Below are positions 3,948-42,009 of a DNA stretch of 64,000 nucleotides, piece after piece. Position 1 is the first letter of the stretch, and every line of letters starts with the position of its first letter. The DNA comes from a phage. The position numbers and the translations under genes were made by a program. The stretch lies in sequence record OZ346151.1; one strand, given 5' to 3'. A model generated the notes under the pieces. The model was not told the DNA's origin and ran no database searches. It saw nothing but the letters and a program-made list of their open reading frames with translations.

Positions 3948-4789
3948 AAATAACATTGTGGCTTCGTGCAGTGATGCACGTCGAAAACCTCTTTAATTGA
4001 CGGGAAGGCTAAGTTGACTTTTACACCTAAACATGGTAAAAGCTCAATATGCTAATCCGCAGCGAAGACTAAAGGGGTGTAGTTAAAATGGCTAGATCAG
4101 TTGAGTATCACGGATATACCGTGTTTGATGATGGAACAATACCTTTATCGAAACGTGATCATACAACAATGTTTTGTTTTGATAATGGTCGAGGTTACCT
4201 TTGCGTAACCATGTTCATCGAGGGGAAGCAGTGCACAAAAGGTGTCCACCACTTGGTTGCTGAATGCTTTGTATCAAACCCTGATCCTGAAAGGCTCACA
4301 TGGGTGAACCATAAGGACGGAAACAAATACAACAATGCATACTGGAACCTTGAATGGACCACCCCTGGTGGAAATATCAAACACGCTTATGATAATGACC
4401 TCAGAGTAAGGCCAGTCGGTGAGTATAATGCCAACGCTGTACTGACCGAGGATGAGGTAACGGAGATTTGCGAACTGTTACAAAGTGGTTTACGACAATG
4501 CGAGATTAGGGATCTTGGGTATCCTTATGAGACGGTCAGAGCCATAAAGCAAAGAAGACAGTGGAAACATATCTCTAAAAACTACACCTGGTAGTAACGT
4601 TCAGAGACTATCGAAAGCATAGCGCCAACATAAATTGGTGCGAAGAAGCGAGTAGAGTAGACCAGCAAGTGCGGTCGAAATGGGAGGTGCCTTGGTAACA
4701 AGGTAGTGAGATAGTCCGATCCATACAGGAAACTGTATGGCTGTGCACGTAATGGTGCGGGGTAGCTTAACGACCTACCTGAACTATTG
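3948..4789 (+). mobile_element. putative group I self-splicing intron in DNA polymerase gene, carrying HNH homing endonuclease ORF
   Basis: Exon 1 ends ...YYH after a U (3947); downstream frame resumes DEYQLQV...GRNWGDCH, restoring motif C (YHDE) and the family A C-terminus; possible P1 pairing exon CCAU with intron GUGG (3958-3961); G at 4789 precedes exon 2; boundaries +/- a few nt. Confidence 0.65.
4088..4594 (+). CDS. HNH homing endonuclease (intron-encoded)
   Basis: HNH motif ...VNHKDGNKYNNAYWNLEWTTPGGNIKH; own start and stop inside the polymerase interruption. Confidence 0.8.
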   Translation: MARSVEYHGYTVFDDGTIPLSKRDHTTMFCFDNGRGYLCVTMFIEGKQCTKGVHHLVAECFVSNPDPERLTWVNHKDGNKYNNAYWNLEWTTPGGNIKHAYDNDLRVRPVGEYNANAVLTEDEVTEICELLQSGLRQCEIRDLGYPYETVRAIKQRRQWKHISKNYTW

Positions 4790-38163: not shown

Positions 38164-38637
38164 CTAGTCTACCTGAACCCAACCGCCTGATACTTTTTTA
38201 AACATTCTTTGGTTATCACTGCCTCGGAACGGTTTCTTGGTTGGTAAATCTTTTACATACTTACCGTCAATGATGATATCAGCCAGTTTAATAACATCAC
38301 TAGAGATATGGTCAAATGTGAACCCAGTATATACAAGAATAGTTTTCTTGTCACCAAATTTTTCCTTAATTTTCTCCATCAGGCTAATAATATCTGGCTC
38401 ATTATAGTATGCTAAGGGTTCTCCACCCAGTAGAGAGATACCGCACACAGACGGGTTATCTAAATCTGACAAGATTTTTTGCAAGTCTTCTTCAGTGAAC
38501 TTCCTCCCCTTATCTTTTGACCAAAATGCCTGATTAAAGCAACCAGGGCAAGCGTGTGGGCACCCAGATACCCACAAGGCAGTTCTAATACCTGGTCCTT
38601 CGGTGTAAGATATTTCTGTGTATCCAGCAATGTTCAT
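38164..38637 (-). CDS. nrdG: anaerobic ribonucleotide reductase activating protein (radical SAM)
   Basis: CxxxCxxC cluster GCPHACPGC; adjacent to nrdD. Confidence 0.8.
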   Translation of the reverse strand: MNIAGYTEISYTEGPGIRTALWVSGCPHACPGCFNQAFWSKDKGRKFTEEDLQKILSDLDNPSVCGISLLGGEPLAYYNEPDIISLMEKIKEKFGDKKTILVYTGFTFDHISSDVIKLADIIIDGKYVKDLPTKKPFRGSDNQRMFKKVSGGWVQVD

Positions 38638-38750: not shown

Positions 38751-38813
38751 ACTGCACCTCCTAGCTCACTGTGTGTCAATAATATGCCACATCCTTGTGG
38801 CTTTTGTCAAGAA

Positions 38814-40085
38814 TCAGCAACCACAACTTCCGTAGTGCTTAACTCGCTCGATAACTTCCGCTTGCTTACCTTTATTGTAAGGACGGGAGTTAGGACTGGA
38901 AAGGTATCCAGACACACGTCGAATTACACTGATCGTTCCCTCTTCATGGTTTCCACACTCTGGGCATACAAAGCCTTTAGCTGTTGCACTGAACTCACCA
39001 GAGAAACCACACTTGAGACATTTATCCACAGGTTGGTTAATACCAAAATACATAATGTGTTTATACCCGAAGTCAACAAGAGCCTCTAAAGCATCCAGGT
39101 TGTTTTTCAGGTTAGGTGTTTCTACGTATCCGATGTTGCCACCAGAGGATATCATAGCAAAACCTTCTTCATACTCCCACTTATCAAAAGGAGAGCTATT
39201 GATCCATACTGGCTGATGGAAACTGTTGGTGAGATATTCATGCTCGTGCTTCAACACTTCAGGATATTCACGATCCAGACAGGTTGCAGCTTTATAGCAT
39301 AGACTCTCAGAAGGGGTGCCGTACAAACTAAACGCTAGTCTACTTTTCTTCTTGTATCGCTCACAAGCATCTCTCATGTGCTGAAGTATTCCAAGAGCTA
39401 AAGCCTTGTCACCCTCTCTGCCCAAAATCTGACAGGTTTCATACACACCAATATACCCAATACTGATGGAAGCGTACCCGTCATAGAAGAGTTTATCAAT
39501 ACTCTCTTCAGGATCCAGGCGAGCAAGAGCGCCTTCACACCACATGATAGGGTTCTGCCCTGCCTTAGTGCCTTTCAGACGGTTAACCCTTACAAGGTGA
39601 GCTTCATATGCCAAATCCAGATACTCGTCAAGAACGGAAAAGAAATCAACACCTTCCGTCTTAGCTTTTGCCGCAATCATTGGCAGGTTAAGACTAACAA
39701 CACCCAAGTTGAATCTGCCGAGGTATTTCTCCTCACCTGTTTCCAAGTCATTGTATTTGCTAAGAAAACTCCGGCAACCCATGCTCGTTACTTTACCATC
39801 TGTCGAGCCTGTCACTTTACGATTTAGTGGAACAGAAACAAAGTCAGGATAAATCCGCTCTGCAGAGCATTCCAGAGCTAATCGTTTCAAATCATAGTTA
39901 GGATCTCCAGGGTTCATGTTGACACCCTCTTCTAGGAAGAACAACACTTTAGGGAACACAGGTGTGATACGTTCTTCACCAAGACCCATTTTGTGGACTT
40001 TCAAGTAGTTTTTGGTAATCATTCTACCAAAGACTGAGGTGTCCAGACCTAAACTTAATGTGATGAATGGAGTCTGCTGTCTCCT
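38814..40085 (-). CDS. nrdD: anaerobic ribonucleotide reductase NrdD, exon 2 (C-terminal part)
   Basis: Glycyl-radical motif RRVSGYL; zinc ribbon CLKCGF...CPECG; similarity to remembered E. coli NrdD (QTPF..LG.DTS) begins upstream of first ATG, implying splicing. Confidence 0.8.
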   Translation of the reverse strand, partial: RRQQTPFITLSLGLDTSVFGRMITKNYLKVHKMGLGEERITPVFPKVLFFLEEGVNMNPGDPNYDLKRLALECSAERIYPDFVSVPLNRKVTGSTDGKVTSMGCRSFLSKYNDLETGEEKYLGRFNLGVVSLNLPMIAAKAKTEGVDFFSVLDEYLDLAYEAHLVRVNRLKGTKAGQNPIMWCEGALARLDPEESIDKLFYDGYASISIGYIGVYETCQILGREGDKALALGILQHMRDACERYKKKSRLAFSLYGTPSESLCYKAATCLDREYPEVLKHEHEYLTNSFHQPVWINSSPFDKWEYEEGFAMISSGGNIGYVETPNLKNNLDALEALVDFGYKHIMYFGINQPVDKCLKCGFSGEFSATAKGFVCPECGNHEEGTISVIRRVSGYLSSPNSRPYNKGKQAEVIERVKHYGSCGC

Positions 40086-40882
40086 CCCTGTGTTTCCACA
40101 GGGCCAGACTATCTCTTACTCTACTTCAATAAGATAATAACCCTTTATTGTGAGATGCTTACCTTCGGCATTTCCTTCGATAGCCCTATGAACGTTACCT
40201 ACGTTCAAATTTAAGGCTTTTGCACAGGCATAGAGTGAAGGATATTCACCCACCAAGGTTTTACCTTTGTATGCCTGCACTTTCCTATAGCACTTACCTG
40301 GACAAAGTCCTGTTCGGAAAGCATGTCTCTTATTATCTTCCGGCAAAACCCACTCTAGGTTAGACGGATGATCATTCAATGTATTGCCATCTTTATGATT
40401 CACTTCCCAGTTTTCAGGGTCTTCTGGGACATCCGGCAAACAATACAAGGCAACAATCCTTGAGGTTTGGATTCGAATCTTTTTACCTTTGTGGTTGAAA
40501 GAGTACATATAACGGCGTTTAACATGCTTGTTACCTTTTCCATAACCTCCCCACAATATTGGGTGTAGCATTCCACGTTTTCCGTATACGTTTCCAACCT
40601 CATCAATCACATAGTTTGATTCTTCACCATTAAGAATGATCTTTTTCATAGAGCCTCTCCATTTCGAAGTTAGTATTTCAACTAACCCCTACACTACTTG
40701 GTTCAGAAATGTTTGTCAAGCATTTCTGCCTTTCGTTAGTCGTTACAACCGTTCCAACTCCTGTAAGAACTAGTCACGGGATTGGCATAGCTTTCGCCTT
40801 AGCGTTCCCCGTTAGCCGGATTTACCGACCCCTCTTATGAGGTTAGGAGAGTTTTACAACGGCCAGTTTGTTAACCGTTGAC
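40086..40882 (-). mobile_element. putative group I intron in nrdD with 3'-located HNH ORF
   Basis: nrdD reading frame broken between ...INTLTS and RRQQTPF...; HNH ORF in the gap ends ~30 nt before exon 2 (ORF-at-3'-end layout as recalled for the T4 nrdD intron); boundaries approximate. Confidence 0.6.
40116..40649 (-). CDS. HNH homing endonuclease (intron-encoded)
   Basis: HNH motif VNHKDGNTLNDHPSNLEWV; paralogous to 4088-4594. Confidence 0.8.
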   Translation of the reverse strand: MKKIILNGEESNYVIDEVGNVYGKRGMLHPILWGGYGKGNKHVKRRYMYSFNHKGKKIRIQTSRIVALYCLPDVPEDPENWEVNHKDGNTLNDHPSNLEWVLPEDNKRHAFRTGLCPGKCYRKVQAYKGKTLVGEYPSLYACAKALNLNVGNVHRAIEGNAEGKHLTIKGYYLIEVE

Positions 40883-41734
40883 AGAAGTTAACGTGTTGAT
40901 TTGATAGAGCAAAGTCTGCATGCTGTCAAATACGTCTTTATCTGTCATTTGCATTGCAACAGTTTCAGCATCCGGCAACCAATGTTCCTGGCAAAATTTA
41001 AGGTTCTTCTCATAGGTTGCTTCAGCATACTGTGCCAGATAATGATCAATATGGCTCATAGTCTGACCACCATATTGAGCACTAGCTACCGCACTAGAGA
41101 TTTGGCTAAGGATTGTTGTTGCAACCCCTATTGACTTCGGCTTACTGACATGGGCGTTACCAATGTTGAATCCGTTTTCCAACATATCTGGATAATTTAC
41201 CAAACAACAGTTTGTTAACGGACTGATCAAGTAGTCAAGATCATGCACATGGATGAATCCTTTATTGTGCTCTTCGGAGACACGGTCTGGCAGGATCTGT
41301 GTTGATGCAAGGTGTTTGCTAAGAATACCTGCAAGCAGGTCGCGATGAGTGTGTACATGATTAGTAGGCTTATTTGCGTTTTCTTTTGTAAATTCATCAC
41401 AAGTTCGATCCAAGAAGCCACTAATATCTGCAAGCAGTTTTCCACCTGCCTCTCTGTTATTATCTCTTGTCTGTCTATACTGGATGTATTCTCTGGCTGC
41501 ACATTTTAAACCCATATCCATAAGAGCATCTTCAACAAGGATATGGATATTTTTTACAGAGATCGTGCACTGGTCGGTTGGTAGATTGTTAGCAACAACT
41601 TCATTAACCGCGCAGGCGATCCGGTAAGCTTCTTCTTCAGTATGTCCAGACTCAAGTAAGGCGGACTCTGCCGCCTTGATCACCTTAATTCCGTTATAGA
41701 ACTCTTCTCTACCGTCCCGTTTTACAACTTTCAC
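40883..41734 (-). CDS. nrdD: anaerobic ribonucleotide reductase NrdD, exon 1 (ATP-cone and N-terminal part)
   Basis: ATP-cone-like N-terminus VVKRDGREEF; ORF stops shortly after ...INTLTS. Confidence 0.75.
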
Positions 41735-42009
41735 TTTTTCTCTCCAAAACCATTCTTAACAAAAGAGATGAAATCGTCGGCACCGCCTATATGGACACTG
41801 TCAAGATCGCTTTCTAAGAAGATCTGCGGCAACGTTCTGGGGACAATTGGACTGCACTTCTCAATAAGCTCTTCTTTTGTGTAGCCCTCGCCAAGTGTCT
41901 TATATACAAAAGGCAGACCTTTGCTGATTGCAAATTCTTTTGCTCTGACACAATGTGGGCAGTTATCATTACCGTAAATGATGATGAAAAAAGATTTTTC
42001 GCAGCTCAT
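41731..42009 (-). CDS. glutaredoxin/thioredoxin-like protein (RNR reductant)
   Basis: CPHC active site; between nrdB and nrdD. Confidence 0.75.
   Translation of the reverse strand: MSCEKSFFIIIYGNDNCPHCVRAKEFAISKGLPFVYKTLGEGYTKEELIEKCSPIVPRTLPQIFLESDLDSVHIGGADDFISFVKNGFGEKK

Follow-up and report, generated by a model that had tools for sequence, protein, structure and literature searches.

An IA2-type group I intron carrying an HNH endonuclease gene interrupts the anaerobic ribonucleotide reductase gene nrdD of an rV5-like coliphage

The sunY intron of phage T4 interrupts the same host gene, nrdD, as the element described here, and both lie in the same conserved stretch of the protein (T4 residues Y180 to Q191). 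The T4 intron is inserted inside codon Tyr180 (GAGU|AUGAAG). Its whole core occupies the first ~200 nt, with J8/7-P7' at intron positions 164-174 and P9 ending near position 200. The I-TevII ORF follows at positions 236-1012 of 1033 and leaves 21 nt behind it. It is located 3' of a complete core and not in the P8 loop. I-TevII is a GIY-YIG endonuclease (PMC2988022). A second reference system is the DNA polymerase intron of SPO1 with its HNH nicking endonuclease I-HmuI, from another host gene and another phage group (Gram-positive phages). Within the subfamily of the present phage, the Vequintavirinae, Certrevirus phage CB7 carries HNH ORFs in introns of its DNA-metabolism genes, namely terminase, polymerase and nrdA/nrdB (PMC7344957). 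RT-PCR showed that HNH introns of CB7 splice in vivo, nrdD not being among the genes tested, and the CB7 study neither reports an interruption of nrdD nor analyses RNA structures (PMC7344957). The introns mentioned in the rV5 paper are those of the terminase only. In the BASEL phage records the nrdD CDS is joined from two segments that enclose a 'putative homing endonuclease', the authors having defined intron boundaries by comparative genomics (PMC8594841). The nrdD element is therefore already known, from these joined CDSs and from many GenBank copies, and its finding here is ordinary. Our literature search returned no paper on the RNA structure or splicing of the Vequintavirus nrdD intron.

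The window analysed (64,000 nt, sequence record OZ346151.1) derives from an rV5-like coliphage, genus Vequintavirus. Over region 38800-41800 it shares 99.7% identity with Escherichia phage magaca, and about 28 other rV5-like phages show 94-98% identity across the full region. The nrdD gene lies on the minus strand, as do its neighbours: nrdG (38164-38637) on one side and glutaredoxin (41731-42009), then nrdB and nrdA, on the other. Exon 1 (40874..41734) begins with a GTG at 41734. It encodes the ATP cone and the N-terminal NrdD barrel and ends TCT GTC AAC GGT (SVNG). The corresponding ORF (41734..40871) terminates at a UAA which is the first intron codon, read directly after exon 1, so that the protein ends ...YQINTLTSVNG. 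The preliminary description of this DNA, made from the sequence alone, had an N-terminal ORF with ATP cone stopping soon after INTLTS, as is the case. Exon 2 (38814..40076) begins CAG ACU CCA UUC (QTPF) and includes the active-site MGCRS motif, the glycyl-radical motif RVSGYL and the zinc ribbon. The last two had already been noted for the C-terminal ORF and are indeed present (RRVSGYL and CxxC...CxxC). The first ATG of this ORF is at 40022. Similarity to NrdD was expected to begin upstream of it, and this is borne out by Pfam. Profile NRDD is matched over positions 1-154 in the N-terminal piece and over positions 155-562 in the C-terminal frame extended upstream of the ATG, where the glycyl-radical domain is also matched. 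Since positions 154 and 155 fall on either side, the two pieces abut exactly and the interruption lies between adjacent profile positions.

The boundaries of the insertion were fixed by comparison with intron-less alleles of related phages, a check which the preliminary description had proposed. In PDX and ECP26 the sequence runs ...GTCAACGGG|CAAACTCC... uninterrupted across the junction (protein SVNG|QTPF), and T4 NrdD aligns across it as SSNG-QTPF. The insert at this junction measures 797 nt in the window and in MaxBurger, and 257 nt in HeinrichReichert and in 'Campylobacter phage' A135. The intron thus occupies 40077..40873 on the minus strand, beginning UAACAAACU... and ending ...GGAGACAG, with its terminal G at 40077. 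The bounds first proposed, 40086-40882, had the correct length of 797 nt but both ends were displaced by 9 nt. A 3' splice site after CACAGGG (40086) was considered and rejected. It yields SVNG-RRQQTPF, which exceeds T4 NrdD by three residues, and likewise the intron-less relatives (294 nt for a 101-aa query). The sequences of PDX and ECP26 place the junction at 40077, so the residues 'RRQ', initially taken as conserved NrdD sequence and missing from T4 NrdD and the intron-less relatives, are translated intron. Joining 41734..40874 and 40076..38814 (861 + 1263 = 2124 nt) gives a protein of 707 aa. The spliced CDS is equal in length to the intron-less nrdD of ECP26, colinear and ungapped (693/708 aa identical). 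Removal of a discrete insertion therefore restores a conserved uninterrupted frame. The codon at the 5' splice site is GGU in the window and GGG in intron-less alleles. Between two BASEL records the joined-CDS spans are unequal by 540 nt, the difference between 797 and 257.

These boundaries bear on a different reading of the locus, in which nrdD is a split gene and nothing is spliced: two NrdD halves, separated by a free-standing HNH cassette, would be translated independently and then assemble, as reportedly happens for nrdA/mobE of Aeromonas phage Aeh1. Several GenBank records (magaca, FFH2, FV3) do annotate two NrdD CDSs and an HNH gene, and one HNH-associated interruption in CB7 did not splice (PMC7344957). 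However, in a scan of the exon 2 frame for ATG, GTG and TTG the first to appear is an ATG, 18 codons inside the conserved sequence. As exon 1 stops at the UAA and exon 2 has no early start codon, unspliced nrdD cannot work. Moreover, the boundaries restore the frame to the nucleotide, the ORF-less 257-nt insert found at the same site in relatives makes sense only as an intron, and the insertion contains a complete group I core with covariation (see below). The locus therefore shows neither two translatable fragments nor the lack of a ribozyme expected of an Aeh1-type split gene, and we regard this reading as extremely unlikely.

The element in nrdD is a group I intron with an IA2-type core. 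Its P1 (40857..40880; all elements are on the minus strand) joins the last exon bases CAACGGU (40880-40874) to the internal guide GCCGUUG (40863-40857), with the U40874·G wobble at the splice site, and the terminal G40077 precedes exon 2. The 5' strand of P3, CUCUCC (40846..40851), pairs with GGAGAG (40655..40660) and constitutes the closing helix of the minimum free energy (MFE) fold. Between P3 and J3/4 lie two extra hairpins (40815..40842), CCUC-AUAA-GAGG and GUCGG-UAAAU-CCGGC, also present in the MFE fold. This hairpin insertion is the only mildly unusual feature of the intron. A literature search on P3.1/P3.2 nomenclature returned nothing relevant. A UAA precedes the P4-P5-P6 domain (40751..40812), which consists of P4 (ACGGGG...UCCCGU), the P5 tip (GGC-GAAA-GCU) and P6 (GUUCUUAC-AGGA-GUUGGAAC). 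The 5' strand of P7, GACUA (40737..40741), is located in the string AAC-GACUA inside AACGACUA and pairs with UAGUC (40107-40111). The segment from P7 to the 3' strand of P3 (40668..40728) carries the extra hairpins of IA-type introns, P7.1 (CAGAAAUG...CAUUUCUG, 40704-40728) and P7.2 (GGUUAGU...ACUAACU, 40687-40668), in positions homologous to the T4 hairpins CCCU.../GGGUC.... Such P7.1/P7.2 hairpins are said to define subgroup IA2 (T4 td/sunY type) in the scheme of Michel and Westhof (1990). There follow CGAAAU-GGAGAG and the 5' strand of P8 (GCUCUA, 40654-40649), its 3' strand (UAGAGU, 40123-40118) lying beyond the HNH ORF. The 3' core (40077..40117) begins with J8/7 and P7' (AAGAGAUAGUC, 40117-40107, including AAGAGA-UAGUC) and continues with P9 (CCCUGUG-GAAA-CACAGGG, 40103-40086) and the tail AGGAGACAG. 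The MFE fold of the 5' 243 nt of the intron contains P1 and P3, the two extra hairpins, P4-P6, and also P7.1 and P7.2 (z = -4.1), and the ORF-less 257-nt form folds equally well (z = -3.7). The complete P3-P8 core, with its P3/P7 pseudoknot and J8/7 consensus, was located and checked in 8 sequences. By analogy with Listeria phage LP-114 and with the Rfam alignment, an alternative P3 was tried that uses CCGGC, the second hairpin's 3' strand. This has no complementary 3' strand in the window or in the 257-nt form. CUCUCC/GGAGAG was retained as P3 on account of its covariation and because it lines up with the canonical P3 of T4 and of relatives in a terminase-like gene.

The core closely resembles that of T4 sunY. 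The J6/7-P7, P7.2-P3' linker and J8/7-P7' strings are near-identical, and the shared sequences comprise GUAAAA-P3-UAA, ACGGGG...CAAUCCCGU, AACGACUA (identical in both) and CGAAAY-P3'-P8-AAGAKAUAGUCUG. The T4 version of the J8/7-P7' motif is AAGAUAUAGUC, and the motif of the 3' core is also that of T4 AAGAUAUAGUCUGAAC. Both introns start with UAAC, placing a stop codon directly after the 5' splice site. They differ in location and cargo. The window intron is inserted between the codons equivalent to T4 NrdD Gly190 and Gln191, the T4 site lying 32 nt upstream. The endonuclease is HNH in one and GIY-YIG in the other, and the window ORF is not 3' of the core. The layout of the T4 nrdD intron that had been suggested at the outset does not apply, and neither site, endonuclease nor ORF position indicates orthology with the sunY/I-TevII intron. 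The two are independent insertions of related ribozymes into one conserved stretch.

Further relatives were collected by scanning IMG/VR with the P4-P5 string as a pattern, which matched 20 DNA stretches. Five of them are ORF-less introns that lie in a terminase-like gene and have the canonical P3-UAA-P4 order, and the same string also occurs in introns of Listeria and Bacillus phages. Another match is UViG_3300033120_000502 (L024), from a distant phage, which has a homologous nrdD intron at the same codon boundary (TTNG|QQPF). As in the window, its P3 contributes GGAGAG as ribosome-binding site and an HNH ORF occupies the P8 loop, its product being 46% identical to that of the window and located at the same position in the intron. 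Unlike the window, its host NrdD is only 38-55% identical, and one long hairpin instead of two separates P3 from J3/4. L024 also has a second nrdD intron, at the MGCRS site. Automatic alignment of 12 ORF-trimmed cores with MAFFT for pair counting was abandoned. It misplaced P3 and the P7.2-P3' segment and misaligned the variable parts generally, for which reason helix assignment was manual, with a script to check the pairing. The covariation described below rests on three nrdD-site lineages and a handful of relatives and is weaker than a formal covariation test.

All P3 pairs found among the relatives are fully paired: CUCUCC/GGAGAG, CUCUGC/GCAGGG, CUCUGC/GCAGAG, CUCUUC/GGAGAG, CUCUCU/AGAGAG, CUCUUU/AGAGAG and CCUAUC/GAUAGG (UCUGCC/GGCAGA in T4). 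The first pair of P1 is C-G in the window, A-U in HeinrichReichert and U-A in L024. In the same order, P6 is GUUCUUAC/GUUGGAAC, GCUUCAC/GUGAGGC and CUC/GAG; P9 is CCCUGUG/CACAGGG, CCUUGUG/CAUAAGG and CCUUA/UAAGG; and P8 is GCUCUA/UAGAGU, GUCUGA/UCAGGC and AGUAUCU/AGAUAUU. P8 therefore has three unrelated sequences in the three lineages, each self-complementary across its strands. P1, P3, P6, P8 and P9 all show compensatory changes between the nrdD-site lineages, and so does P7 across the 8 sequences checked (GGCCA/UGGUC in the terminase-gene relatives). The second extra hairpin covaries as well (GUCAGC/GCUGGC, GUUAUAAACU/AGUUUAUAGC). Across the nrdD-site lineages the compensatory pattern is unambiguous.

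Rfam is less favourable. An Rfam scan for a group I core had been recommended in the preliminary description, and it remained below threshold. Model RF00028 has no match in the whole-window scan at its gathering score of 50 bits. Neither the window intron nor its ORF-less relative reaches that score in a local search (27.8 bits, E=8e-5 and 29.8 bits, E=8e-6, respectively). T4 sunY scores 105 bits. A second apparent core in the 3' end of the ORF (Rfam match 40086-40373) is an artefact of the model being forced past the ORF, and the alignment of the window copy is itself wrong, running into the HNH ORF. The low score may be taken as a sign of a decayed intron which splices inefficiently, owing to the insertion between P3 and J3/4 or to the large P8 loop, and leaves NrdD non-functional or helper-dependent. 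The ~30-nt two-hairpin insertion has no counterpart in T4 sunY, and the presence of the intron is polymorphic, two thirds of the relatives being without it. Yet RF00028 also fails to match the terminase-gene relatives at E<=0.001, which have the canonical layout and, like T4 sunY, no hairpins between P3 and J3/4. The low score thus reflects the model, which is insensitive to this lineage, and not the RNA. The hairpin insertion accounts for the poor score of the window copy and is itself found in many related introns. No helix is disrupted, and where lineages differ the substitutions either compensate each other or leave a wobble pair. Both exons are open and 98% identical to intron-less alleles, and the HNH ORF is likewise intact and retains the catalytic H-N-N residues. 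Decay is accordingly very unlikely in our view. Because RF00028 misses this intron lineage, such introns are detected more reliably by comparison to relatives that lack them.

The preferred reading, a mobile intron with its own endonuclease, also agrees with the position and nature of the ORF. The HNH ORF is found where it was first placed (40116..40649, minus strand, 177 aa), and its residues 78-107 match Pfam HNH_3 above the cutoff (29.3 bits; cutoff 24.8). With phmmer, residues 8-160 align to residues 8-159 of I-HmuI (PDB 1U3E; E=2.7e-4), sharing HKDGN...N...NLEW. The resemblance to I-HmuI thus covers the full-length ORF and the motif, but the sequence similarity is distant, and the NUMOD-like C-terminal module (PF22083) is matched weakly, at 18.4 bits and below the cutoff of 27. 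As judged from these features, the endonuclease in the P8 loop looks intact. The ORF fits precisely between the two P8 strands: the 5' strand ends with the A of the AUG and the 3' strand with the U of the UAA. The ORF, of 534 nt, therefore is the P8 loop. J8/7, P7', P9 and the terminal G all lie 3' of it (40117-40077). This differs from the layout expected by analogy with T4 sunY, in which the core would lie entirely 5' of the ORF, and the distance between ORF and exon 2 is 39 nt and not about 30. One third of the core would consequently escape a scan limited to 40650-40882, as initially envisaged. The ORF has a single plausible ribosome-binding site, GGAGAG, the 3' strand of P3, 5 nt upstream of the AUG. 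A candidate internal promoter (TTGACA-17-TAGTGT) upstream of the ORF is no more than a weak lead: it fails the scan criteria and is not conserved in L024. The window contains another HNH intron, as previously noticed. It is a group I intron in the DNA polymerase gene (...IIYYH|DEYQLQV) with its HNH ORF (4088-4594) in the P6 loop, and the two HNH ORFs are related, being 42% identical in a stretch of 64 aa that surrounds the HNH motif (E=2e-8).

The exon junction is matched by 111 records, nearly all of the Vequintavirus type. It is uninterrupted in 74 of the 111, rV5 included. Fourteen records have the 257-nt ORF-less intron and about 28 the intron with HNH. Magaca (MN850612), MaxBurger (MZ501093), FFH2, FV3, slur16 and JEP1 carry the same intron as the window, 94-99.7% identical over nrdD, intron and HNH, with no substantive difference. 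The JEP1 record uses the wording 'HNH homing endonuclease, Phage intron' for the HNH of a second nrdD intron in JEP1. Most other GenBank records give the NrdD exons as separate genes. The ORF-less form is not a simple deletion derivative: over its initial 150 nt it is only 86% identical to the window intron, and from P7.1 to P8 the two are unrelated. This presence/absence pattern among relatives fits active homing, as proposed in the preliminary description, and the mix of empty, ORF-less and ORF-carrying sites fits what the homing-endonuclease life cycle would predict.

Taken together, these data make it almost certain that a mobile phage IA2-type group I intron with an HNH endonuclease splits nrdD. 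The sequences themselves show the insertion with its exact boundaries, the covariation of the fold and the distribution of the intron among relatives. From membership of these families we infer catalysis, splicing in vivo and endonuclease activity. The nrdD pre-mRNA, transcribed from the minus strand, would fold into a ribozyme with the 3' end of exon 1 held by the guide in P1 and a pseudoknotted core formed by P3 and P7 around P4-P6 and P8. Free guanosine would attack after U40874 and exon 1 would next attack after the terminal G40077. The ligated mRNA would read ...GTCAACGGT|CAGACTCC... at the splice junction and direct synthesis of the 707-aa NrdD. The HNH protein would nick or cut intron-less nrdD alleles of co-infecting Vequintaviruses (target around ...GTCAACGGGCAAACTCC... 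in rV5 and PDX), and repair would copy in the intron together with flanking exon bases, for example changing GGG to GGU. Since the ribosome-binding site is the 3' strand of P3 and the AUG abuts P8, folding and HNH translation should exclude each other on each RNA molecule: ribozyme folding would hide the site, and a loaded ribosome would prevent P3 and P8 from forming. A trade-off between ribozyme folding and HNH translation is thus likely from the sequence arrangement, which resembles the sequestration of ribosome-binding sites described for T4 intron endonucleases (PMC2988022). Every nrdD-site copy has one or two hairpins between P3 and J3/4, as do several of the IMG/VR relatives. It is a rather doubtful proposal that these hairpins (30-39 nt) are an undescribed IA2 peripheral domain and that, jointly with this, the double role of the P3 3' strand as Shine-Dalgarno sequence, next to an AUG that abuts P8, makes a true either/or switch for each transcript.

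The value of the finding lies in annotation. The biology is ordinary and no open question depends on it. Here nrdD should be given as one joined CDS (41734..40874 + 40076..38814, 707 aa) with an intron-encoded HNH, in place of the two 'NrdD' fragments listed in many deposited rV5-like genomes. Three nrdD insertion sites were seen among the relatives examined, two of them 32 nt apart. The intron is a further example of how homing elements settle in those parts of phage nucleotide-metabolism genes that are most conserved, and a single genus with empty sites, ORF-less introns and ORF-carrying introns provides a convenient natural series for the life cycle of homing endonucleases.

The DNA polymerase gene of the window also carries a group I intron (3949-4787, + strand), IA2-like and of the same family as the nrdD intron. 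It divides the HDE motif of the polymerase, exon 1 ending with ...RRIIYYH and exon 2 starting with DEYQLQV. P3 is formed by CCUCUU/GGGAGG, P8 by UGCCUUG/CAAGGUA, and the J8/7-P7' segment reads GUGAGAUAGUCC. The HNH ORF of this intron (4088-4594, + strand) lies inside the P6 loop, whereas that of the nrdD intron in the same window is located in P8.

The family includes ORF-less introns of roughly 250 nt in five IMG/VR stretches (L014, L021, L026, L027 and L029). Their host is a terminase-large-subunit-like gene, where the insertion adjoins the Walker A motif (...IIVYGG | ...MGGGKSYCGLLRHL...). None of the five was reported by the RF00028 search at E<=0.001.

In the nrdD intron, the 5' strand of P3 is separated from J3/4 by one or two hairpins of 30-39 nt (window 40815-40842, minus strand), an unusual location for a peripheral element. 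These hairpins also occur in seven compared stretches (L001, L007, L011, L012, L013, L022 and L024) and are missing from the T4 sunY intron and from the five terminase-gene relatives. A literature search found no published description of them. Their insertion is probably the reason why the RF00028 score reaches only ~28-30 bits.

Among relatives, the active-site MGCRS codons of nrdD constitute a second intron site. This site is empty in the window (~39742-39776), but JEP1, phita32 and 'Campylobacter phage' C2 each have ~797 nt inserted at it, with another HNH gene. An IMG/VR Vequintavirus contig carries an ORF-less copy there, which scores above threshold with RF00028 (70.5 bits). In the compared stretches, MGCRS-site introns were located in L002 (1443-2239), L012 (2246-2485) and the distant phage contig L024 (4585-5346, reverse).

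Approximately 16-19 GenBank records named 'Campylobacter phage' (MG065690, MG065655, MG065644 and others) are Vequintaviruses, with 95-99% identity to E. coli rV5-like phages in the nrdD intron region. Their stated host is C. jejuni, a label that looks doubtful, and several are flagged UNVERIFIED.

In the BASEL annotations, the start codon of nrdD is an internal ATG that corresponds to position 41521 of the window; this choice drops 71 codons from the beginning of the ATP cone. A GTG at window 41734 overlaps the glutaredoxin stop codon, and nrdD read from it agrees with the annotated 707-aa protein of ECP26.

A promoter-like string, TTGACA-17 nt-TAGTGT (window 40690-40718, minus strand), covers the loop of P7.1 together with the linker between P7.1 and P7.2, ~40 nt 5' of the HNH start codon in the nrdD intron. 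It falls below the promoter-scan criteria and is not kept in L024. RNA begun at this point would lack the 5' strand of P3 and would therefore leave the HNH ribosome-binding site exposed, a situation like that at the internal promoters of T4 introns.
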